Origin: Escherichia coli
Lineage (GTDB): Bacteria; Pseudomonadota; Gammaproteobacteria; Enterobacterales; Enterobacteriaceae
DNA: 64,000 nt
Assembly: GCF_003334355.1 (NCBI RefSeq)
Contig: NZ_QOWP01000009.1
Direction: 5' to 3' (one strand)
Below the pieces are notes generated by a model. It was not told the origin of the DNA, did no database searches, and saw only the letters and a list, made by a program, of their open reading frames with translations. Positions within the stretch are counted from its first letter, which is position 1. Each line of letters opens with the position of its first letter. A program made the position numbers and the translations under genes. Shown piece after piece: positions 9,525 to 48,964 of this stretch.

Positions 9525-10865
9525 GTGACTACATTAACGCTTGTTTTAACAGCAGTAGGGTCTGTTTTACTGCTGCTGTTTTTAGTCATGAAGGCGCGTA
9601 TGCACGCTTTCCTGGCTTTAATGGTGGTGTCCATGGGGGCTGGCCTTTTTTCCGGTATGCCGCTCGATAAAATCGCAGCGACGATGGAAAAAGGGATGGG
9701 AGGCACCCTCGGCTTCCTGGCGGTGGTTGTCGCCCTGGGAGCTATGTTTGGCAAGATCTTACATGAAACCGGCGCAGTCGATCAGATTGCCGTCAAAATG
9801 CTCAAATCCTTCGGTCACAGCCGCGCGCATTATGCCATCGGCCTTGCGGGGCTGGTCTGTGCGCTACCGCTGTTCTTTGAAGTGGCGATTGTTCTGCTGA
9901 TTAGCGTTGCTTTCTCAATGGCGCGCCACACCGGTACGAACCTGGTGAAGCTGGTAATCCCATTATTCGCAGGCGTGGCGGCAGCGGCGGCGTTCCTGGT
10001 GCCAGGGCCAGCGCCAATGCTGCTGGCATCGCAGATGAACGCCGATTTTGGCTGGATGATCCTGATTGGCCTGTGTGCGGCAATTCCGGGAATGATTATT
10101 GCCGGGCCGCTGTGGGGTAATTTCATCAGCCGTTACGTGGAGTTGCATATTCCTGACGACATCAGCGAACCGCATCTCGGCGAAGGCAAAATGCCGTCCT
10201 TCGGATTCAGCCTGTCGCTGATCCTGTTGCCGCTGGTGCTGGTGGGGCTGAAAACCATTGCCGCGCGTTTTGTGCCAGAAGGCTCTACCGCTTACGAATG
10301 GTTCGAGTTTATTGGTCATCCGTTTACCGCGATTCTGGTTGCTTGTCTGGTGGCGATTTATGGCCTGGCGATGCGTCAGGGCATGCCAAAAGACAAAGTG
10401 ATGGAGATTTGCGGTCACGCGCTGCAACCGGCGGGGATCATTCTGCTGGTGATTGGTGCGGGCGGCGTGTTCAAACAGGTGCTGGTTGACTCTGGCGTAG
10501 GTCCGGCACTGGGCGAAGCGTTAACCGGCATGGGCCTGCCGATTGCTATCACCTGCTTCGTGCTGGCCGCTGCAGTGCGCATCATTCAGGGGTCTGCCAC
10601 CGTAGCCTGTTTAACGGCGGTGGGACTGGTGATGCCAGTCATTGAACAACTGAACTACTCTGGTGCGCAAATGGCGGCACTGTCGATTTGTATCGCTGGT
10701 GGTTCGATTGTTGTCAGCCACGTTAACGACGCTGGTTTCTGGTTGTTCGGTAAATTTACCGGCGCGACCGAAGCCGAAACGCTGAAAACCTGGACCATGA
10801 TGGAAACCATTCTCGGCACTGTCGGTGCCATCGTTGGGATGATTGCGTTCCAGCTGTTGAGTTAA
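9525..10865 (+). CDS. gntU: low-affinity gluconate:H+ symporter (GntP family, 446 aa), GTG start
   Basis: ORF track; polytopic membrane protein immediately downstream of gntK. Confidence 0.94.
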   Translation: MTTLTLVLTAVGSVLLLLFLVMKARMHAFLALMVVSMGAGLFSGMPLDKIAATMEKGMGGTLGFLAVVVALGAMFGKILHETGAVDQIAVKMLKSFGHSRAHYAIGLAGLVCALPLFFEVAIVLLISVAFSMARHTGTNLVKLVIPLFAGVAAAAAFLVPGPAPMLLASQMNADFGWMILIGLCAAIPGMIIAGPLWGNFISRYVELHIPDDISEPHLGEGKMPSFGFSLSLILLPLVLVGLKTIAARFVPEGSTAYEWFEFIGHPFTAILVACLVAIYGLAMRQGMPKDKVMEICGHALQPAGIILLVIGAGGVFKQVLVDSGVGPALGEALTGMGLPIAITCFVLAAAVRIIQGSATVACLTAVGLVMPVIEQLNYSGAQMAALSICIAGGSIVVSHVNDAGFWLFGKFTGATEAETLKTWTMMETILGTVGAIVGMIAFQLLS

Positions 10866-10921
10866 GTTTGTTCGCCCGGTAGTTGTGACGCTACCGGGTT
10901 CTTTTCGAAAAACTCTCCTCG

Positions 10922-11515
10922 TTACCCCTTCATCCACATTCGAATGCCGTCGAGGAACATCTGGGTTGCCATCATCACCAGAATCAATCCCATCAGGCGT
11001 TCAAGTGCGTTCACCCCTTTCTCGCCCAGCAGACGTAAAAATAGCGAAGACTGTAGCAGGATGACAAAGGTGCCGCCCCAGGCCAGCAGCAGAGCAATCA
11101 CCAGATGCCCCATCTGATTCGGGTACTGATGAGACAACAACATCAGCGTGGCGAGAATAGTCGGCCCGGCGACTAACGGAATTGCCAACGGCACGATAAA
11201 TGGCTCTTCACCTGCAGGAAGCCCGCTGCTATTTCCTGAAGCGCTGGGGAAAATCATCTTAATGGCGATCAGAAACAGAATGATGCCGCCAGAAATGGAG
11301 ACGGTTTCTGCTCGCAGGCTGAGAAATGCCAGAATTTTCTCACCCGCAAACAGGAACACCAGCATCACCAGGAGAGCAATAAGCAACTCTCGCACCATGA
11401 TTGCCCGCCGTCTTTTCGGTTCAGTATGTTTCAGTACGGACATGAAAATAGGCAGGTTTCCGAGCGGATCCATAATCAGGATCAATAAAACTGCTGCAGA
11501 AATGATTTCATTCAT
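10922..11515 (-). CDS. yhgN: MarC-family inner-membrane protein (197 aa)
   Basis: ORF track; hydrophobic multi-TM sequence; synteny between gntU and asd. Confidence 0.88.
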   Translation of the reverse strand: MNEIISAAVLLILIMDPLGNLPIFMSVLKHTEPKRRRAIMVRELLIALLVMLVFLFAGEKILAFLSLRAETVSISGGIILFLIAIKMIFPSASGNSSGLPAGEEPFIVPLAIPLVAGPTILATLMLLSHQYPNQMGHLVIALLLAWGGTFVILLQSSLFLRLLGEKGVNALERLMGLILVMMATQMFLDGIRMWMKG

Positions 11516-11706
11516 AACTCAAATTCCCTGATAATTGCCGCGGACTTTCTGCGTGCTAACAAAGCAGGATAAGTCGCATTACTGATGGCTTCGCTATCAT
11601 TGATTAATTTCACTTGCGACTTTGGCTGCTTTTTGTATGGTGAAAGATGTGCCAAGAGGAGACCGGCACATTTATACAGCACACATCTTTGCAGGAAAAA
11701 ACGCTT

Positions 11707-12810
11707 ATGAAAAATGTTGGTTTTATCGGCTGGCGCGGTATGGTCGGCTCCGTTCTCATGCAACGCATGGTTGAAGAGCGCGACTTCGACGCCATTCGCC
11801 CTGTCTTCTTTTCTACTTCTCAGCTTGGCCAGGCTGCGCCGTCTTTTGGCGGAACCACTGGCACACTTCAGGATGCCTTTGATCTGGAGGCGCTAAAGGC
11901 CCTCGATATTATTGTGACCTGTCAGGGCGGCGATTATACCAACGAAATCTATCCAAAGCTTCGTGAAAGCGGATGGCAAGGTTACTGGATTGACGCAGCA
12001 TCGTCTCTGCGCATGAAAGATGACGCCATCATCATTCTTGACCCCGTCAATCAGGACGTCATTACCGACGGATTAAATAATGGCATCAGGACTTTTGTTG
12101 GCGGTAACTGTACCGTAAGCCTGATGTTGATGTCGTTGGGTGGTTTATTCGCCAATGATCTTGTTGATTGGGTGTCCGTTGCAACCTACCAGGCCGCTTC
12201 CGGCGGTGGTGCGCGACATATGCGTGAGTTATTAACCCAGATGGGCCATCTGTATGGCCATGTGGCAGATGAACTCGCGACCCCGTCCTCTGCTATTCTC
12301 GATATCGAACGCAAAGTCACAACCTTAACCCGTAGCGGTGAGCTGCCGGTGGATAACTTTGGCGTGCCGCTGGCGGGTAGCCTGATTCCGTGGATCGACA
12401 AACAGCTCGATAACGGTCAGAGCCGCGAAGAGTGGAAAGGGCAGGCGGAAACCAACAAGATCCTCAACACATCTTCCGTAATTCCGGTAGATGGTTTATG
12501 TGTGCGTGTCGGGGCATTGCGCTGCCACAGCCAGGCATTCACTATTAAATTGAAAAAAGATGTGTCTATTCCGACCGTGGAAGAACTGCTGGCTGCGCAC
12601 AATCCGTGGGCGAAAGTCGTTCCGAACGATCGGGAAATCACTATGCGTGAGCTAACCCCAGCTGCCGTTACCGGCACGCTGACCACGCCGGTAGGCCGCC
12701 TGCGTAAGCTGAATATGGGACCAGAGTTCCTGTCAGCCTTTACAGTGGGCGACCAGCTGCTGTGGGGGGCCGCGGAGCCGCTGCGTCGGATGCTTCGTCA
12801 ACTGGCGTAA
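11707..12810 (+). CDS. asd: aspartate-semialdehyde dehydrogenase (367 aa)
   Basis: ORF track 11647..12810; internal ATG at 11707 gives [27 protein letters not shown]. Confidence 0.96.
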
Positions 12811-19985: not shown

Positions 19986-22451
<2,466 letters not shown>

Positions 22452-22497: not shown

Positions 22498-22566
22498 CAT
22501 CATTTCGGAAAAGTGTCCAGAAGGGGCAAGGGGACTCGGGGAGTATAATTTCGCCATTCAGAAAGA

Positions 22567-22983
22567 ATGGAAAGAATAATGCAAAACAGAAAATGGATTT
22601 TGACCTCGCTGGTAATGACTTTTTTCGGCATCCCCATTCTGGCGCAGTTTTTGGCGGCGGTTATTGCCATGCTGGGTGTCGGACTTGCCGGTATTATTGA
22701 AGTTTGTAATATCTTTATCACGCCAACAATTTACCTTCTGCTCAACGTCTTTATGCTGACGCTGGGGGCGATAATAATATTTTTCTCTGGTCGCGTGTGG
22801 GCCGGTGATAGCGCGCCAGAAAACAGAGAAATAGCCGTCTGGCGGCAATGCTTTTTTCTCTTACCCGCGCTATTAACCCTGGTTGGCTGGATAATCACGC
22901 TACATCTGGCAGATTATCAATTTCGCCAGATGGGAGCTGGTTGGTTGGCAAACCTTATGCTTCCCTGGTTGGCGTTTTTTTAG
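22567..22983 (+). CDS. hypothetical small polytopic membrane protein (138 aa, about 4 predicted TM segments)
   Basis: ORF track; strongly hydrophobic helices (ILTSLVMTFFGIPILAQFLAAVIAMLGVGLAGII...); ends at TAG 22981-22983; not recognised as a named family. Confidence 0.5.
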   Translation: MERIMQNRKWILTSLVMTFFGIPILAQFLAAVIAMLGVGLAGIIEVCNIFITPTIYLLLNVFMLTLGAIIIFFSGRVWAGDSAPENREIAVWRQCFFLLPALLTLVGWIITLHLADYQFRQMGAGWLANLMLPWLAFF

Positions 22984-23012
22984 TCTCATTAGTGGGTGGT
23001 GAGTACTGGTGG

Positions 23013-24083
23013 ATGGTCATTATTCCCGTTGGGGCGCATATCAGTTTTTCGCTGGGATACGCCTGGCCGACCAGATATCCTTTATCCGGCACGTCCGGAC
23101 TACGTTGCCGTAACTTACTCCTGTTTCTACTTCTCTTACTTGGTATTGTCGCCGGGTATCAGGCCCATTTATATAAGCAGCAAAATCCTGGTGTCGGTGT
23201 ACGCGAAAATATTGATATCTGGGCCTGGCGACCCGATAAACTCAATAATCGACTGACGCCGCTGCGTGGCAAACCGCAAATTCAGTTTAGGCAAAACTGG
23301 CCGCGAATCGATGGCGCCACGGCTGCGTACCCAATTTATGCTTCTGCATTTTATGCATTAAGTGTAATACCAGAGGATTTTCACGTTTGGGATTATCTGG
23401 AAAACTCTCGTACGCCAGAAGCATATAACAAAATCGTTAAGGGCGATGCTGATATTATTTTCGTGGCGCAACCTTCCGGTGGGCAAAAAAAACGTGCAAA
23501 GGAATCTGGTGTCACTTTGCTGTACACCCCCTTTGCCCGTGAAGCATTCGTTTTCATCGTCAATGCGGATAATCCGGTTAATTCCCTGACTGAACAACAG
23601 GTGCGTGACATTTTCAGTGGTGCAATTACCAATTGGCGTGCTGTTGGCGGTAACGATCAGGAGATCCAGACCTGGCAGCGCCCGGAAGACTCTGGCAGCC
23701 AGACAGTGATGCAATCACAGGTCATGAAAAATGTCCGCATGATCTCGCCGCAGGAAACGAAAGTGGCAAGCGTGATGGAGGGAATGATTAAAGTCGTTGC
23801 CGAATACCGTAATACAAACAACGCAATAGGCTATACCTTCCGCTATTACGCGACGCAAATGAATGCTGATAAAAATATAAAATTGCTAGCGATTAACGGT
23901 ATTACACCGACGGCGGAAAACATTCGCAACGGCAAATATGCGTACATCGTCGATGCATTTATGGTGACGAGAGAAAATACAACGTCAGAAACACAAAAAC
24001 TGGTCGAATGGTTTTTAACGCCGCAGGGGCAGAGTCTGGTAGAAGATGTGGGATATGTGCCGCTGTATCCAACAATGGAATAA
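23013..24083 (+). CDS. PstS-family (phosphate-binding-protein-like, PBP_like_2) periplasmic binding protein with N-terminal hydrophobic anchor; start uncertain (ATG 23013 or GTG 22992)
   Basis: ORF track 22848..24083 (its first ~48 codons overlap the upstream membrane ORF out of frame and are discounted). Motifs DGATAAYPIYASAFYAL, RPEDSGSQ, AIGYTFRYYA, LLAINGITPTAENIRNG parallel PstS GAGATFPAPVY / RADGSGTS / AIGYVEYAYA / PTEENF. Confidence 0.7.
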   Translation: MVIIPVGAHISFSLGYAWPTRYPLSGTSGLRCRNLLLFLLLLLGIVAGYQAHLYKQQNPGVGVRENIDIWAWRPDKLNNRLTPLRGKPQIQFRQNWPRIDGATAAYPIYASAFYALSVIPEDFHVWDYLENSRTPEAYNKIVKGDADIIFVAQPSGGQKKRAKESGVTLLYTPFAREAFVFIVNADNPVNSLTEQQVRDIFSGAITNWRAVGGNDQEIQTWQRPEDSGSQTVMQSQVMKNVRMISPQETKVASVMEGMIKVVAEYRNTNNAIGYTFRYYATQMNADKNIKLLAINGITPTAENIRNGKYAYIVDAFMVTRENTTSETQKLVEWFLTPQGQSLVEDVGYVPLYPTME

Positions 24084-24108: not shown

Positions 24109-25101
24109 ATGAATAAATTCACCGGTGTTTTACTATTAGGCACGGCGTTACTGGCGGGATGTGTCGACCGGGAAGGGTACTATAACAGCGTTAGGGAAGA
24201 AGAGAGCCATGGACTGACGTCTCTGCGGGGGCAACCTGCATTACGTTACAGCGATGATTGGTCAAGATGGCCGAGAGTGTACGGCGCTACAGCCTTATAC
24301 CCGCTGTATGCCTCCGCGTATTATAAATTAGTACCCGAGCCAAAAGATAAGGATCGAACCTCGCTGGCCTGGCAGGCGTATGGTTTGCAGCAAACCCGAA
24401 CAGCTGAAGCCTACGATAGTCTGATTAAAGGTTCCGCGACGGTTATTTTTGTTGCACAACCGTCGGAAGGACAGAAAAAACGTGCAGAAGAAGCGGGTGT
24501 TAAACTGAAATATACCGCTTTCGCCCGCGAAGCCTTTGTCTTTATCGTTGATATTAATAACCCGGTAAATTCTCTCTCTGAGCACCAGGTTAAAGATATT
24601 TTTAGCGGCAAAACTAGCCGCTGGAATAAAGTAGGTGGTAGTGACGAACATATAAAAGTCTGGCAGCGCCCTGAAGATTCTGGAAGCCAAACGATTATGA
24701 AGGGGTTGGTTATGCAAGACACCCCAATGCTGCCAGCTAAAAAATCCACTGTGATTGATCTTATGGGCGGTTTAATTACTGAAGTTGCCGACTATCAAAA
24801 CACGCCATCTTCCATTGGGTACACCTTCCACTATTACGTCACTCGTATGAATGACAATATGCTCAAAATGCGCAAGCAGATTAAACTTTTGGCTATAAAT
24901 GGCGTTGCGCCTACCGAGGAAAATATCCGCAACGGCACTTATCCATACATTGTGGATGCCTATATGGTGACGCGTGAAAATCCCACGCCGGAAACGCAGA
25001 AATTTGTTGACTGGTTTATAAGTCAGCAGGGGCAACAGTTGGTAGAGGATGTGGGGTATGTGCCGCTGTATGAAGCATCCCCCGAATCATCAGGACAATA
25101 A
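24109..25101 (+). CDS. PstS-family binding-protein paralog, predicted lipoprotein (330 aa)
   Basis: ORF track 24046..25101; ATG at 24109 gives MNKFTGVLLLGTALLAGC (lipobox LAGC); roughly 60% identical by eye to the upstream paralog across the mature domain. Confidence 0.75.
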   Translation: MNKFTGVLLLGTALLAGCVDREGYYNSVREEESHGLTSLRGQPALRYSDDWSRWPRVYGATALYPLYASAYYKLVPEPKDKDRTSLAWQAYGLQQTRTAEAYDSLIKGSATVIFVAQPSEGQKKRAEEAGVKLKYTAFAREAFVFIVDINNPVNSLSEHQVKDIFSGKTSRWNKVGGSDEHIKVWQRPEDSGSQTIMKGLVMQDTPMLPAKKSTVIDLMGGLITEVADYQNTPSSIGYTFHYYVTRMNDNMLKMRKQIKLLAINGVAPTEENIRNGTYPYIVDAYMVTRENPTPETQKFVDWFISQQGQQLVEDVGYVPLYEASPESSGQ

Positions 25102-25388
25102 TGATGAATATAATCAGACTTTATATTTATCCGTTATTTCTCGGCTTTGTTATTGTGCCGTTGTTGGTGTGGCCGATGGTGGTTGCGCTGGCTGCTTGTA
25201 TTATCACGCTGAGTTTTCTGGGGGAAATGCTGTTCTCAATCCCGCTCATGATCAGGCGTATTTCACTTCTGCAATTACAACTTTGGTTATCGGCTGAATA
25301 TGCGCTTTTCTTCTGTGTAATGTGTTGCGTTGGTTGGCAATTTACTCGTAGAACTCAATCTGAATTGAAAAGCAGGCTCCATTGTTGA
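25101..25388 (+). CDS. hypothetical small membrane protein (95 aa); may be the N-terminal part of a gene interrupted by an in-frame stop
   Basis: ORF track; ATG overlaps the stop of the preceding gene (TAATG); hydrophobic helices. Confidence 0.4.
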   Translation: MMNIIRLYIYPLFLGFVIVPLLVWPMVVALAACIITLSFLGEMLFSIPLMIRRISLLQLQLWLSAEYALFFCVMCCVGWQFTRRTQSELKSRLHC

Positions 25389-25703
25389 TTGGTATTCGCA
25401 CCGATCTATTTATGGTTGATCCTCTGGAATATCATTTTTTACATCGCGCCAGCGAAAATTGCGTTGCTGGAAAGTATCCGCAATTTCTTTCTGCTTGTTG
25501 TCTGGCTACCCCTGAATTTTTCGCCATTTTGGCCTCAGCCGTGGACGGATTTTATCGGTCCAATAAGCGCACAGCTTGGTTTTGCGTTGGGATATTATTG
25601 CCAGTGGTGCAGCAAAAATAGATGCCAGATACGGAAGTTGAGTGAGTGGGGAACGTGCTTAAGTTTTGTTACGTTGGGTATGATGGCGTGGGCTTTGCGG
25701 TAA
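25389..25703 (+). CDS. hypothetical small membrane protein (104 aa); same frame as 25101..25388, separated from it by a single stop codon
   Basis: ORF track; both ORFs are in frame 0 and contiguous, so one stop codon splits a roughly 199-codon membrane-protein reading frame. Confidence 0.4.
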   Translation: MVFAPIYLWLILWNIIFYIAPAKIALLESIRNFFLLVVWLPLNFSPFWPQPWTDFIGPISAQLGFALGYYCQWCSKNRCQIRKLSEWGTCLSFVTLGMMAWALR

Positions 25704-39367: not shown

Positions 39368-41452
39368 ATGGAAAGCAAACGTCTGGATAATGCCGCGCTG
39401 GCGGCGGGGATTAGCCCCAATTACATCAATGCCCACGGTAAACCGCAGTCGATTAGCGCCGAAACCAAACGGCGTTTGCTTGACGCGATGCATCAACGTA
39501 CCGCCACGAAAGTGGCGGTAACGCCAGTCCCGAATGTCATGGTTTATACCAGCGGCAAAAAAATGCCGATGGTGGTGGAGGGCAGCGGCGAATATAGCTG
39601 GCTGCTGACCACCGAAGAAGGAACACAGTACAAAGGCCATGTAACGGGGGGCAAAGCGTTCAATCTACCGACGAAGCTGCCGGAAGGTTATCACACGCTG
39701 ACACTCACCCAGGACGACCAGCGCGCGCATTGCCGGGTGATTGTCGCCCCGAAGCGCTGTTACGAACCGCAGGCGTTGCTGAATAAACAAAAGCTGTGGG
39801 GTGCCTGCGTCCAGCTTTATACGCTGCGATCGGAAAAAAACTGGGGTATTGGGGATTTTGGCGATCTCAAAGCGATGCTGGTGGATGTGGCAAAACGTGG
39901 CGGGTCGTTCATCGGCCTGAACCCGATTCATGCGCTCTATCCGGCAAATCCGGAGAGTGCCAGCCCATACAGCCCGTCTTCTCGCCGTTGGCTGAATGTG
40001 ATTTATATCGACGTTAACGCCGTTGAAGATTTCCATCTTAGCGAAGAGGCTCAGGCCTGGTGGCAGTTGCCGACCACGCAACAGACGCTGCAACAGGCGC
40101 GCGATGCCGACTGGGTCGATTACTCCACGGTTACCGCCCTAAAAATGACAGCATTACGAATGGCGTGGAAAGGTTTCGCGCAACGTGATGATGAGCAGAT
40201 GACCGCGTTTCGCCAGTTTGTTGCAGATCAAGGCGACAGCCTGTTCTGGCAGGCAGCCTTTGATGCGCTACATGCCCAGCAAGTGAAAGAGGACGAAATG
40301 CGCTGGGGCTGGCCTGCATGGCCAGAGATGTATCAGAACGTGGATTCACCAGAAGTGCGTCAGTTCTGCGAAGAACATCGTGATGACGTCGATTTTTATC
40401 TCTGGTTGCAGTGGCTGGCTTACAGCCAGTTTGCCGCCTGCTGGGAGATAAGCCAGGGCTATGAAATGCCGATTGGCTTGTATCGTGATCTGGCGGTTGG
40501 CGTAGCGGAAGGTGGGGCGGAAACCTGGTGCGACCGTGAACTGTATTGCCTGAAAGCGTCGGTTGGCGCGCCGCCGGATATCCTCGGCCCGTTGGGGCAG
40601 AACTGGGGATTACCGCCAATGGACCCGCATATCATCACCGCGCGTGCCTATGAACCGTTTATCGAGCTGTTGCGTGCCAATATGCAAAACTGCGGCGCAT
40701 TACGAATTGACCATGTGATGTCGATGCTGCGTTTGTGGTGGATACCGTATGGCGAGACGGCAGATCAGGGCGCGTATGTTCACTATCCGGTGGATGATCT
40801 GCTCTCGATTCTGGCACTCGAAAGTAAACGTCATCGCTGTATGGTGATTGGTGAAGATCTCGGTACCGTACCGGTAGAGATTGTCGGTAAGCTGCGCAGC
40901 AGCGGTGTGTACTCCTACAAAGTGCTCTATTTCGAAAACGACCACGAGAAGACGTTCCGTGCACCGAAAGCGTATCCGGAGCAGTCGATGGCGGTTGCGG
41001 CGACACATGACCTGCCTACGCTACGCGGTTACTGGGAGAGCGGGGATCTAACGCTGGGCAAAACCCTGGGGCTGTATCCGGATGAAGTGGTACTGCGCGG
41101 TCTGTATCAGGATCGCGAACTGGCGAAGCAAGGGCTGCTGGATGCACTGCATAAATATGGTTGTCTGCCAAAACGTGCCGGGCATAAGGCATCGTTGATG
41201 TCGATGACGCCGACGCTGAACCGTGGTTTGCAGCGCTACATTGCCGACAGTAACAGTGCTCTGTTAGGACTACAGCCGGAAGACTGGCTGGATATGGCCG
41301 AACCGGTGAATATTCCTGGCACCAGTTACCAGTATAAAAACTGGCGACGCAAGCTTTCCGCAACGCTTGAGACGATGTTTGCCGATGATGGCGTGAACAA
41401 GTTGCTGAAGGATTTGGACAGACGGCGCAGAGCTGCAGCGAAGAAGAAGTAG
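39368..41452 (+). CDS. malQ: 4-alpha-glucanotransferase / amylomaltase (694 aa)
   Basis: ORF track; MESKRLDNAALAAGISPNYINAHGKPQ... Confidence 0.98.
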   Translation: MESKRLDNAALAAGISPNYINAHGKPQSISAETKRRLLDAMHQRTATKVAVTPVPNVMVYTSGKKMPMVVEGSGEYSWLLTTEEGTQYKGHVTGGKAFNLPTKLPEGYHTLTLTQDDQRAHCRVIVAPKRCYEPQALLNKQKLWGACVQLYTLRSEKNWGIGDFGDLKAMLVDVAKRGGSFIGLNPIHALYPANPESASPYSPSSRRWLNVIYIDVNAVEDFHLSEEAQAWWQLPTTQQTLQQARDADWVDYSTVTALKMTALRMAWKGFAQRDDEQMTAFRQFVADQGDSLFWQAAFDALHAQQVKEDEMRWGWPAWPEMYQNVDSPEVRQFCEEHRDDVDFYLWLQWLAYSQFAACWEISQGYEMPIGLYRDLAVGVAEGGAETWCDRELYCLKASVGAPPDILGPLGQNWGLPPMDPHIITARAYEPFIELLRANMQNCGALRIDHVMSMLRLWWIPYGETADQGAYVHYPVDDLLSILALESKRHRCMVIGEDLGTVPVEIVGKLRSSGVYSYKVLYFENDHEKTFRAPKAYPEQSMAVAATHDLPTLRGYWESGDLTLGKTLGLYPDEVVLRGLYQDRELAKQGLLDALHKYGCLPKRAGHKASLMSMTPTLNRGLQRYIADSNSALLGLQPEDWLDMAEPVNIPGTSYQYKNWRRKLSATLETMFADDGVNKLLKDLDRRRRAAAKKK

Positions 41453-41464
41453 AGTGCGGTTGAT

Positions 41465-41485
41465 GCCGGATGCGATGCATCCGGC
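41465..41485. terminator. hairpin GCCGGATGC-GATG-CATCCGGC between convergent malQ and gntT
   Basis: Perfect inverted repeat read from the sequence. Confidence 0.5.
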
Positions 41486-41496
41486 AGTCAGTGTTA

Positions 41497-42813
41497 TCAA
41501 ATCACCATATTCAGCAGCAGACAGCCTACCAGACCGCACACCGAGATAATGGTTTCCAGCATCGACCAGGATTTGATGGTCTCGCCGATAGTCAGGTTAA
41601 AGTACTCTTTGAACAGCCAGAAGCCCGGATCGTTCACATGAGAGAAAATCACACTACCGGAACCAACCGCAATAACCATCAGCTCCGGGCTAACACCCGT
41701 CGTTGCAATCAGCGGTGCCGCGATACCACCCGCAGTGATTGCCGCAACGGTTGCGGAACCCAGCGCGATACGCAGTACGGCAGCAATCGACCAGGCCATC
41801 AGCAGCGGAGAAATGTTGGTTTCGTGCATCATGGAAGCAATGTATTTGTCCACGCCGCTGTCTACCAGCACCTGCTTGAACGCACCGCCACCACCGATGA
41901 TCAACAGCATCATCGCAATGATTTTGATGGAAGAAACCAGCGTGTCGTTAATCTGATCCATTGAACGACCACGGTTTAGACCAAAGGTGAACATCGCAAT
42001 CAGCACGGCAATCAGCGTAGCCATTACCGGGTCACCGAGGAACTCCGCTACCGGCAGGAAAGCGTGACCTTTCGGCAGGATCATTTCGGCAATCGCACGC
42101 ATCGCCATCAGTACTACCGGCACCAGAGAGGTCCAGACGCTGACGCCAAAGCTCGGCATCTCTTCTTCGCTGAAGGTTTTCGCGCTGTAGAGACCTTCCG
42201 GGATTGGCTTATCGATACCTTTCAACACGCGAGCGTAAACCGGACCGGCGAGAATCACGGTCGGGATTGCCAGAATAGTACCGTACAGCAGGGTTTTACC
42301 CATGTCGGCATTGAAAATGGTGGCAATCGCAGTCGGGCCCGGATGCGGTGGCAGGAAGCCGTGGGTCACAGACAGTGCAGCCGCCATTGGTACACCAACA
42401 TACAGCAGTGGAATATTCGCAGAAGCCGCGATGGTAAACACCAGCGGCAGCATCAGCACAAAGCCCACTTCATAGAACAGGGCAAAACCAACGGTAAAAC
42501 CGGTCAGTACCACCGCCCACTGGATGTGTTTTTTACCAAATTTGGCAATCAGCGTGGTGGCGATACGTTGTGCGCCACCGCAGTCTGCCAGCATTTTGCC
42601 CAGCATTGCGCCAAAACCCATGATCAGGGCAAGGCTACCGAGCGTCCCGCCGACACCGGCTTTGATGGAGCCAATAACTTTATCCAGCGGCATTCCTTGC
42701 ATTAATCCAACAGCAAGCGCCACGAGGACGAGAGCGATGAAGCCGTTCATTTTGAAGCGGATCATCAGGAGCAACAACAAGATTACACCGATAGCAACAA
42801 TGACTAATGGCAT
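41497..42813 (-). CDS. gntT: high-affinity gluconate transporter (GntP family, 438 aa)
   Basis: ORF track; MPLVIVAIGVILLLLLMIRFKMNGFIAL... Confidence 0.97.
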   Translation of the reverse strand: MPLVIVAIGVILLLLLMIRFKMNGFIALVLVALAVGLMQGMPLDKVIGSIKAGVGGTLGSLALIMGFGAMLGKMLADCGGAQRIATTLIAKFGKKHIQWAVVLTGFTVGFALFYEVGFVLMLPLVFTIAASANIPLLYVGVPMAAALSVTHGFLPPHPGPTAIATIFNADMGKTLLYGTILAIPTVILAGPVYARVLKGIDKPIPEGLYSAKTFSEEEMPSFGVSVWTSLVPVVLMAMRAIAEMILPKGHAFLPVAEFLGDPVMATLIAVLIAMFTFGLNRGRSMDQINDTLVSSIKIIAMMLLIIGGGGAFKQVLVDSGVDKYIASMMHETNISPLLMAWSIAAVLRIALGSATVAAITAGGIAAPLIATTGVSPELMVIAVGSGSVIFSHVNDPGFWLFKEYFNLTIGETIKSWSMLETIISVCGLVGCLLLNMVI

Positions 42814-42970
42814 GATTTACCTGGCCTTTCATTTGTTATGGGTAACGTCAATTTTCTGACGACAAACTCTAATTATCCCAATCGGGAACAGAGATATTGC
42901 GGCACCACGACTGATACCCACTAAAACTAATTATTGTAGTCAGATGTCAGGAGTATGTTTGGTACCCATG

Positions 42971-42989
42971 TGAATGATACGGGTAACAT
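42971..42989 (-). promoter_or_regulatory. GntR operator in the gntT promoter/leader (ATGTTACCCGTATCATTCA on the gntT-sense strand)
   Basis: Same palindrome family as the gntK operators; lies about 160 bp upstream of the gntT start; coordinates approximate. Confidence 0.6.
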
Positions 42990-43117
42990 CTGGCGTTTGA
43001 GAATCACCAGAGCGGGGTAAATTTAAATTATGAGAGGTTGGTCATATTATCGCGGGGAAACGAAGGGAGGGATTTGCCAAAGCAATGCTGCGCCAACGTC
43101 TGGCACATGTTCAATGT

Positions 43118-43173
<56 letters not shown>

Positions 43174-43749
43174 TTAGTAGTAGGAGTGTTCGCCGCGCTG
43201 GTGTTCGGTGAGATCGCGCACACCTTTCAGCTCCGGGAATTCGTTTAGCAGCTGCTTCTCGATCCCTTCTTTCAGCGTCACATCCACCATGGAACAACCG
43301 TTACAGCCGCCGCCAAATTGCAGAATGGCGTAACCGTCTTCGGTGATTTCCATCAGCGAAACGCGACCACCGTGACCAGCAAGTTGCGGGTTGATCTGCG
43401 ACTGTAGCATATACTCCACGCGCTCCATCAGCGGTGCATCGTCTGCCACTTTACGCATTTTGGCGTTCGGGGCTTTCAGCGTTAACTGGGAACCCAACTG
43501 GTCGGTAACAAAATCGATCTCTGCATCTTCCAGGTATGGTGCGCTTAACTCATCAACATACGCGGTCAGCAGGTCAAATTTCAGGGCGGTGTCGGTGGCT
43601 TCCACGGCATCCGGCGGACAATAAGAAACACCACATTCAGCGTTAGGCGTGCCAGGGTTAATCACAAATACGCGGATTTGTGTCCCTTCTTCCTGATTTG
43701 CCAGCAGTTTGGCAAAGTGCGCTTGTGCAGCATCGGAAATACGGATCAT
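43174..43749 (-). CDS. nfuA: Fe-S cluster carrier protein NfuA (191 aa)
   Basis: ORF track; [29 protein letters not shown]... with C-terminal CxxC. Confidence 0.97.
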
Positions 43750-43807
43750 AGTAATGGCCTAATAGTTGACTATTTTAGTTGGTTATAATACGCCCATCAT
43801 CGAGGCT

Positions 43808-45299
<1,492 letters not shown>

Positions 45300-45325
45300 G
45301 CACTTTTGAATGGCGAGACAGAACT

Positions 45326-46204
45326 TTACTGACTCGCCGCAGCCAACTCTTCTTCTGACAGCCCGGTAAAGCGCATGATGTCTGCAAGAGGGACTCCGGA
45401 TTCAAGCATTATTTTGGCTATATGCAAGGCTTTGGATTGTTCCCCCTCCTGCCGCAATCTTTCCGCAATAGTCATTAAACTCTCCTTGTGTTTCGGTGAA
45501 CGTTCGGCAACGCCGTCGATAAAATCGTTAAAACGTACCGCATCGCCGGTTTGCAAGATGTAATTAAACAGCCCTTTGATTTGTCTGTCATTAGCGTATC
45601 CACTACTTAATAAGCAGGCCATTTGTTCTACCAGCCCCATCAGATCGCGTTGACGAATATGTTTTTGAATTAACTCCAGCAGCGCCATACGTCGGTGCTG
45701 CATGATTTCATCATCAGGCATGACGGTGACATCAATCAGCGGAAATGCGGAGGCATAAAGCTGCCTTGCCAGTTTGGGATCGGCGAAACAATCCAGCCAA
45801 CACAGCGAATAGGGATAGGGGCTTTCAATACCGTGGTAAAACAACAATGGCACCACCATCGGCAACGTTTTGTATCCGGCATCAAGGTGATTTTGCATTG
45901 CGGCAATAGCGTAACGCATCATGCGAAATGCGATCAGTTTGTTTGAGGTGCTTTGATGTTCAATCAGACAATAGATGTATCCTGGTCCTTGTTCTGTTTT
46001 CACCGACCACAGCACATCGGAATAGCTTTCACGCAGATCGTCATCAATAAAGCTGCTCGACTCCAGCTTGAGGGTTTTCATATCACAGAGCGCGTGAATG
46101 GGTGCCGGTAAATGAAACGCAAGAAAATCGCGTGCCGTCTCCGGTTGGCGTAAAAAGAGTTTGAACAGCGCATCGTGTGGGGTGGAACTCTGCTTTTTGC
46201 TCAT
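45326..46204 (-). CDS. rpnA: recombination-promoting nuclease RpnA (YhgA; transposase_31-like, 292 aa)
   Basis: ORF track; [28 protein letters not shown]...; matches remembered YhgA. Confidence 0.88.
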
Positions 46205-46406
46205 GGCGTTCCTTCACCTGTTGTTTGAATGCCGCGACTCTACGCGCCACTCCACACCTGTGCATTAGCCAGTTTTCATCCCTGCGAGACGCTTTCAGAG
46301 GAACTTACGTCGCGCTGCAAGAATTGCATTTTTATGGAAAGCCGCACGCAAAAAAGCCCGGATGCAGACGCATACCGGGCTTTTCAAAACAGGCGATGGA
46401 GTATGG

Positions 46407-46643
46407 TTAACGCAGCGCCCACCACTCGCGCAGACAGGCTTTTCCTTCCGGGCAGCTTTTACAACTGCCGGAGAGGCAGCCGTCAGGTTCTTCCTGAATC
46501 CGCACGGCTTTGCCCATACTTTCCAGTTGTTGCAGCATGGCGTTAATCATTGGCTGCGGAGTGTGCAATGTCTGGCTTATCTGGGCCGCTTCCATACGGC
46601 CCCGTAACGCCAGCAAATCACGCACCTGAATAAGTGAAGCCAT
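46407..46643 (-). CDS. feoC: FeoC, small winged-helix protein of the ferrous iron uptake operon (78 aa)
   Basis: ORF track 46407..46652; ATG at 46643 gives [27 protein letters not shown]...; start overlaps the feoB stop by one nucleotide. Confidence 0.9.
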
Positions 46644-48964
46644 TAATGGCAATCACCGGTGGTGCTGGCTGCGCAGCAACTACTTACCGACTTGCGGGTT
46701 GCCAGCAGTTCGATATCCACCCGGCTACGCGCGCGGCGCAGCAGACCGATAACCACGATGTTAAACAGGATAACCGCCAGAATGCACACCAGGCTGTAAG
46801 TTGGGTGCTGACTGTAGCTGGCGACCTGATAGAACAATGTTGCCAGCGAGTAAGCGATATTCAGCCCCCACAGGATGGAGAAGCCCATCCAGCCACGGCT
46901 TGATTCACGGGCGATGGCTCCCATCACCGAGATACATGGTACATACAGCAGGACGAAAATCAGGTAGCTGTAAGCTGCTGCTGCGCTACCGAATTTCTGA
47001 TCCATCACGCCCATCGCCCCGGTACCCATTTCGCCGTCGCCTTTGCTGGCTTCAATGGGGTTCATCAGTACGCTAAGGCTGAAGGTGTCTTTCAGGCTCT
47101 GCCAGGTTTCATCTATCGCACTGAACAGCTCTTCACCGAGGTTAAACTCTGCCGGATTGAACTCTTCGTCCTGAATATTTTCTGCGGTGTAGAGGGTGTT
47201 GAGCGTACCCACTACCACTTCTTTCGCCATGGCACCTGTAAACAGGCCAACCGTTGCCTGCCAGTTATCTTCATGCACGCCAATTGGCTTGAAGACCGGG
47301 GTGATCACCCGGCTGACGGACGCCAGCGCCGAGTCGTTGATGTTATCGACGATTTTCCCGCTCAGCGAGAAGCTGTTGAAAGCGCTCAGGAAAATGCTGA
47401 CGATGATGATCACTTTACCAGCACGCAGAACGAAGCCTTTCAGACGCTGCCAGGTCTGGATAATCAGGCTTTTAACGTGTGGTACATGATAGACCGGCAA
47501 CTCCATGACAAACGGCGTCGCTTCACCGCGCATGATGGTGTACTTGAGCATCAGGCCAGTCAGCACCGCCATCACAATACCCAGCATATACAGCGAGAAG
47601 ACCGCCAGCGCACCGTTCTGCCCGAAGAAGGCAGCCGCGAATACTGCGAAGATAGCCAGACGCGCGCCGCAGGACATAAACGGTGCCATCATGATGGTCA
47701 TCAGACGTTCACGCGGTGCATCAAGCGTACGTGCACCCATTACCGACGGTACGTTACAACCGAAACCGACGATCAGCGGCACAAAGGATTTCCCCGGCAA
47801 GCCCAGCGCCTGCATCAGACGGTCCATCACAAACGCCGCACGCGCCATATACCCGGAGTCCTCAAGGAAGGAGAGGAACAGGTACATCATGCCAATCTGC
47901 GGCACCAGTGGCAGCACGGTGTTAATGCCGCCACCCAGGCCCTGGGCGAGGAAGATAGTCAGCCAGTCCGGGAAGTGGAGCGTGTAGCCAATCCATTGAA
48001 TACCATGCACAAATAGCGCCACGGAGCCGACGTCAAACAGCGGCTGTAACGCCCCGCCGATGTTGATAGCCAGCAGGAACATCAGGTACATCACAAAGAG
48101 GAAAATCGGCAGACCGAGGAAACGGTTGAGCACGATTTTATCTACCGCAGTGGTGAAACGGCTGGGTTCTGCCGTCAGGGTGTTGCTTACCACATCACAG
48201 ATGGCAGCAATGCACTGGTAACGCGCATCGGCAATGTGCAGCGCCGGATCGTCCATCTCATTACGCAGACGGGCGAGGGCGGCATCCAGATGCTGCGACG
48301 CTTCACCGGCGTAGGCGCGGCTGTAGATATCGCCTTCCAGCATTTGCAGGCCCAGCCAGCGACGTTGTTTCAGCGGGATGTCGGAAGGCATCACTTTTGC
48401 CAGTGAATCTGCTTCGTTGAGCAGCGGCTGTGCGTAATGCACCAGTTCCACATTCTCGTTAGCTTTATAGCGATCAATCGCCAGCTTGAGCGCTTCAATA
48501 CCGCGACCACGGGTTGAAACCAGCGGGATCACCGGACAGCCCAGACGCGCCGACAGAGCATCAATTTCAATACGAATATTTTGCTTCTCGGCAATGTCGA
48601 GCATGTTCAGTGCCACAATGCAGGGAATGCCGAGTTCCAGCAGTTGTAGCGTCAGGTACAGGTTACGCTCAAGGTTAGACGCATCCACCACGTTAATCAG
48701 CAGGTCGGCGTCGCCACTCAAAATGTAGTGACAGGCGATTTGCTCATCGAGCGAGGTCTGCGATGAGATGGTGGTCAGAGAATAGGTGCCGGGCAGGTCC
48801 ACCAGCGTGACCTGATGATCGGTGGTGGAGAATTGCCCTTCTTTACGTTCGACGGTAACGCCAGCCCAGTTACCTACACGCTGACGTGCGCCAGTGAGCT
48901 GGTTAAATAAGGTTGTCTTGCCAGAATTTGGATTACCAATTAAGCCTATGGTTAATTTTTTCAT
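46643..48964 (-). CDS. feoB: ferrous iron transporter FeoB (GTPase plus permease, 773 aa)
   Basis: ORF track 46643..48976; ATG at 48964 gives [25 protein letters not shown]. Confidence 0.97.

Follow-up and report, generated by a model that had tools for sequence, protein, structure and literature searches.

PstS, the binding protein of the PstSCAB transporter (PF12849, TIGR02136; PDB 4GD5, 4Q8R, 1TWY, 1IXH), has a fold that is common to the C-terminal 260 residues encoded by the gene described here, an accessory gene of Escherichia coli that we call gene 1. The two also have in common an Arg...Ser-Gly-Ser/Thr anion-binding motif. Unlike PstS, however, the gene 1 product carries its binding domain fused to a polytopic membrane domain of 200 residues, and not behind a signal peptide or lipobox. 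It also scores below the family cutoff for NCBIfam PstS (TIGR02136; 122.1 bits against 206.6), reads 'AQP' in the stretch aligned to the family-2 'ASR' of 4Q8R and 4GD5, and is encoded without adjacent pstCAB genes and without an upstream Pho box; at up to three mismatches, no Pho box was found anywhere in the 64,000 nucleotides of E. coli DNA that were analysed (hereafter the window). A binding domain that is covalently tethered to a polytopic membrane domain is found in OpuABC of Lactococcus lactis and in GlnPQ, where the membrane partner is an ABC permease. The closest relative by position is yzgL (b3427) of E. coli K-12, which, like the window copy, is an inactivated remnant of the same gene at the same glgP-glpD locus. 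On the one hand, K-12 has lost most of the gene together with the rest of the island; on the other hand, the window gene is whole and disabled by a single-base deletion. Literature searches on yzgL, ybl140-142 and fused PstS proteins turned up no function.

The window is 99.67% identical over 59.6 kb to NZ_CP022959.1, the genome of an ATCC 8739 derivative. Gene 1 sits in an accessory island between glgP (20004-22451) and glpD (from 25919, minus strand), with glgP, a PstS-like paralogue (gene 2), a membrane protein (gene 3) and glpD as neighbours and no pstC, pstA or pstB adjacent. The order glgP-gene 1-glpD is kept across genera of the Enterobacteriaceae. The features of the island are:

22579..22983, plus strand: 5' fragment of gene 1, encoding helices 1-4 and part of helix 5, then three wrong residues (AFF) and the stop.
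22848..22970, plus strand: out-of-frame stretch upstream of the shift point, open by accident; a noncoding reading of the membrane domain.
22971..22972, plus strand: deletion site, a GG run (GGG in all other genomes); loss of one nucleotide causes the frameshift.
22971..24083, plus strand: 3' fragment of gene 1 in the -1 frame, residues 132-501 of the intact protein and the stop; it encodes the rest of helix 5, helices 6 and 7, a linker and the PstS-like domain.
22975..22981, plus strand: T7 run, immediately before the premature stop, which it overlaps; contracted to T6 in a frameshift allele of separate origin.
22981..22983, plus strand: premature TAG resulting from the frameshift.
23013..24083, plus strand: longest ATG-started remnant ORF, 356 aa with two helices and the binding domain, predicted by gene callers as a gene of its own.
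24109..25101, plus strand: gene 2, a 330-aa PstS-like paralogue with a lipoprotein-type signal (LLAGC).
25101..25703, plus strand: gene 3, a 200-aa membrane protein and stand-alone paralogue of the gene 1 membrane domain, with TGG changed to TGA at 25386-25388.

No Rfam family was detected between 22300 and 26000, and a promoter and terminator scan returned no more sites than shuffled sequence did. Two minus-strand ORFs over the break site (22558-22848 and 22500-22721) were considered and discarded as unsupported; they are antisense to a conserved coding region.

The two overlapping reading frames were as the initial annotation had described them, and its ORF ends, stop, open second frame, hydrophobic segments and candidate starts were all confirmed in the sequence. 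The upstream ORF (22567-22983, 138 aa) is very hydrophobic and terminates at TAG 22981-22983. Another reading frame stays open between 22848 and 24083 (411 aa) and includes GTG 22992 as well as ATG 23013, the latter 30 nt downstream of the premature stop. Two hydrophobic segments, MVIIPVGAHISFSLGYAW and LLLFLLLLLGIVAGY, are encoded in this downstream frame, and behind them lies a PstS-type domain (Pfam PBP_like_2, E 2e-29, residues 243-481 of the gene 1 product). Judged from the alignment, the upstream ORF more likely starts at ATG 22579 than at ATG 22567, 12 nt upstream, because MQNRKW is the N-terminus common to the homologues; its product would then have 134 aa, not 138. The intact CDS in RefSeq starts at an ATA codon (window 22576), one codon ahead of ATG 22579.

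We consider it very probable that both ORFs belong to a single gene of which each is one half, a frameshift pseudogene in this E. coli lineage. Where all comparators read CTGGTTGGGCGTTTTTTTAG, the window reads CTGGTTGGCGTTTTTTTAG, a GGG run short by one G, and this missing G is the sole difference in gene 1 between the window and the ATCC 8739 derivative. The frame shifts after Trp130-Leu131, inside helix 5, and the product ends in ...LPWLAFF* with the stop three codons on. One G added at 22971-22972 joins both frames into a protein of 501 aa that is present, exactly and intact, on at least 1000 public contigs. The juxtaposition of the two ORFs is therefore not a matter of chance. The loss of one G from GGG moves translation out of frame in helix 5 and into the TAG at 22981-22983. 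Read this way, the strain would make no more than a membrane stub of 134 aa, from which the binding domain would be missing.

The same gene is a single 502-aa CDS, spanning both window ORFs, in NZ_CP022959.1 (where it is annotated by RefSeq), in STEC1590 and in ST648, and it is still one CDS in the latter two even though they are only about 90% identical to the window. When one genome per species was scanned, 18 loci matched over the full length; a weak second copy in Superficieibacter electus, without a continuous ORF, was left out of the count, giving 17. Among the protein searches, full-length matches came from exact look-up and the representative search, and only fragments from a word-indexed search. 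An uninterrupted ORF of about 490-545 aa, with five to eight hydrophobic segments ahead of the binding domain, was present in 16 of the 17 loci, the exception being E. albertii NBRC 107761, where codon 215 is a stop. The uninterrupted loci belong to Escherichia (four), Pseudocitrobacter, Superficieibacter, Phytobacter (two), Klebsiella spallanzanii, Intestinirhabdus, Limnobaculum (two), two further Enterobacteriaceae and a Burkholderiaceae MAG. Metagenomic relatives with 34-38% identity in the membrane domain are likewise fused, and one genome has two tandem fused copies. In a genome matching the Intestinirhabdus alba locus by sequence, two fused copies in tandem lie directly after T6SS genes (PAAR, DUF6708, tssM) and before glpD.

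Comparison with homologous loci, which the initial annotation had proposed as the way to look for one fused ORF, thus bore out its suggestion of a single ancestral protein (a polytopic anchor plus a periplasmic PstS-like domain) broken by a frameshift, in that intact single ORFs exist in E. coli and also in seven or more further genera. Homologues consistently encoded as two proteins, the binding protein bearing a cleaved signal peptide, were not what we found. Among intact alleles of E. coli and other Escherichia, dN/dS was 0.15-0.31 in the membrane domain and 0.05-0.12 in the binding domain, and by these ratios the intact alleles are under purifying selection. The dS values between intact gene 1 alleles of E. 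coli and close Escherichia are themselves very high (0.23-0.53), with flanking glgP proteins about 98% identical, which suggests old allelic lineages or frequent recombination at the island.

The window allele is private to one lineage. A 61-nt query over the site matched 685 complete E. coli genomes, none of them at 100% and every match one base longer, and in a gene-length query against complete E. coli genomes the deletion was absent from all sampled rows. The exact 134-aa truncated product was found on Logan contig ERR4578542_9, which is common to five runs and has two further similar places. Over 8405 nt this contig agrees with the window at 100% identity, and it also has the gene 3 change of TGG to TGA at 25386-25388. 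The runs with the allele may all represent re-sequencing of one strain, so that the 'lineage' may be a single clone.

Could gene 1 nonetheless work at a low level through a leaky or compensated frameshift? We regard this as very unlikely. The presumed route would be a -1 slip of tRNA-Phe on U7 with UAG in the A site, or the addition of one U by RNA polymerase. The T7 run at 22975-22981, from its sequence a possible site of -1 slippage, overlaps the stop, the shift needed is -1, and the product would read LPWLAFFLVSL in place of LPWLGVFLVSL, with only two residues changed. The run has itself been altered in length in another lineage. However, the arrangement is the recent product of a mutation and lacks conservation, all other genomes being in frame; RNA folding beyond the stop is no more stable than in shuffled sequence (z = 0.37); a second gene of the island is also disabled by mutation, which speaks for relaxed selection; and seven T is at the lower limit for efficient transcriptional slippage. 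As in programmed -1 frameshifting or slippage (dnaX A AAA AAG; T/A runs), there is a homopolymer (T7) at the gene 1 shift point and a -1 shift would restore the frame, but the gene 1 shift is not conserved, lacks a stimulatory element and comes from a recent deletion. The programmed frameshift that the initial annotation had offered as an alternative is accordingly abandoned, given a shift that is absent from all other genomes and no RNA structure downstream: the gene 1 shift arose by mutation and is not programmed. A full-length or re-initiated protein may still be made to some extent, because T7 abuts the stop and ATG 23013 lies shortly beyond it; such low-level leakiness would be accidental.

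A sequencing or assembly error, with the organism really having GGG and an intact gene 1, is extremely unlikely. Although the lesion is a one-nucleotide length change in a short homopolymer, and no complete RefSeq genome shares the deletion, a run of three G is not error-prone. Moreover, the same allele recurs, along with the nonsense codon in gene 3, in independent assemblies from at least five public runs, and we conclude for this reason that the deletion is real. Over the 64 kb, the window and NZ_CP022959.1 differ by six indels, of which the gene 1 deletion is the only coding one; since the other five are intergenic, this is an assembly without scattered frameshifts in genes.

That the ORFs are instead two functional genes with overlapping ends, a small membrane protein and a two-helix-anchored binding protein starting at GTG 22992 or ATG 23013, is also extremely unlikely: gene callers do call products of 134 aa and 356 aa, a weak purine-rich GGTGAG lies about 10 nt ahead of ATG 23013 and a natural split of both modules adjoins as gene 2 and gene 3, but the break falls within a conserved membrane helix (helix 5), directly after Pro129-Trp130 and not at a domain boundary (in an alignment of 21 sequences Pro129 is invariant and Trp130 is replaced in three), no homologue is split at that point, the allele is limited to one clone, and the upstream product ends in three out-of-frame residues.

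The feature is thus an ordinary, lineage-specific frameshift pseudogene of an annotated but uncharacterised gene. Of 5426 complete E. coli genomes, 3343 (about 62%) carry gene 1 at a coverage of at least 80%. K-12-type genomes retain only its first 223 nt, annotated as yzgL and 92% identical to the window gene. Independent inactivations include a T7 to T6 contraction 4-10 nt downstream of the window deletion, which falls in the same 12-nt stretch, leads to the same TAG and was seen in 204 collection blocks (a lineage that the source labels Shigella dysenteriae, for instance CP061527.1, where gene 1 is further cut by IS1), a TAG after residue 143 where intact alleles have Trp, and internal deletions in gene 1. 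Such repeated loss is what is commonly seen for a dispensable accessory gene. Between 14 and 40 kb of the window there are eight differences from the reference (seven substitutions and the gene 1 deletion), and two of these eight disable genes of the 3-kb island. We infer that the island is decaying in the window strain, as it is in K-12, Shigella and E. albertii, because gene 3 has a nonsense codon too.

Gene 3 is a 200-aa ORF in other strains, and the window copy is interrupted by TGA; at 25404 it also has Ile substituted for Val. TGA is more widespread as an allele than the gene 1 frameshift, occurring on at least 15 contigs, including short contigs of other runs and assemblies. The gene 2 product is 58% identical to the gene 1 binding domain. 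Gene 3 aligns collinearly with the gene 1 membrane domain over 182 columns (hhalign probability 96.5%, E 8e-10), a homology shown by this profile-profile comparison, BLASTP of the membrane domain against gene 3 having found merely a 12-residue motif (E 0.03). Genes 2 and 3, whose stop and start overlap in ATGA at 25098-25101, are a naturally split, order-reversed version of the modules that are fused in gene 1. We rejected the idea that they arose by the splitting of a 536-aa fusion from another genus, since the 536-aa call is an over-extended start of a normal 501-aa copy with an N-terminal membrane domain. Gene 2 is missing from many strains and genera, which instead have a cassette for two soluble hypothetical proteins (236 and 255 aa) in the space that separates gene 1 from the homologue of gene 3; the first gene of the island is thus constant and its middle variable.

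Elsewhere in the window, substitutions relative to NZ_CP022959.1 are concentrated in 10000-12000, 40000-48000 and 62000-64000 (19, about 120 and 29 differences, respectively), with the remainder near-identical, and these three blocks look like recombination tracts. At 3054-4723 on the minus strand, the window encodes an Hcp/TssD-like protein that is intact (392 aa) and extended at its C-terminus by an HNH-like segment, and a 164-aa ORF downstream; the two are possibly a toxin with its immunity protein. At the equivalent place in the ATCC 8739 derivative, tssD is truncated and an IS1 is present.

What might the intact protein do? AlphaFold gave confident models of the membrane domain (pLDDT 84, pTM 0.81) and of the full length (pLDDT 79), placing AF2 helices at 5-43, 49-77, 83-110, 120-140, 145-165 and 173-202. 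The N-terminal domain would have six or seven membrane helices, the last of which leads directly into the binding domain. The C-terminal domain has a PstS fold, both by sequence matches to PDB entries (E 1e-18) and by Foldseek (E about 1e-13). Across the homologue alignment, Arg368, Ser372 and Ser374 are invariant and Thr248 and Gly373 nearly so; we take Thr248, Arg368 and Ser372-Gly-Ser374 to be the equivalents of Thr10, Arg135 and Ser139-Gly140-Thr141 of E. coli PstS. The binding domain would accordingly be a periplasmic one of the PstS type (type II) that retains part of the PstS anion-binding core. The membrane domain would act as its export and anchor signal, so that no cleaved signal peptide would be needed.

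Domain and fold searches revealed no homology between the gene 1 membrane domain and ABC permeases, and the protein is probably not part of a Pst ABC transporter. Among AFDB50 entries with as little as 15-25% identity, the membrane fold is still seen almost solely on the N-terminal side of PBP domains. Because fused and split versions adjoin, residues are conserved and purifying selection is evident, the membrane domain most likely works together with the binding domain and does more than anchor it. The module could then be a small binding-protein-dependent sensor or transporter for phosphate or a phosphorylated compound. More tentatively, and with appreciable doubt, we propose that the intact protein represents an uncharacterised class of binding-protein-dependent membrane module, a sensor or small transporter independent of any ABC system.

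For annotation, the two ORFs should be treated as one frameshifted pseudogene, not as a membrane protein and a PstS-family binding protein, and the window allele as one more case of how the glgP-glpD island has decayed time and again in E. coli and Shigella. The conserved family that combines a polytopic membrane domain with a PstS-like domain has never been studied and is of more interest than the pseudogene. That its fused and split versions adjoin, and that natural null alleles exist, provides material for such study. If the proposed sensor or small transporter is real, the window allele, like the many independent knock-outs known from E. coli and Shigella, would amount to a loss-of-function mutant of the module supplied by nature.
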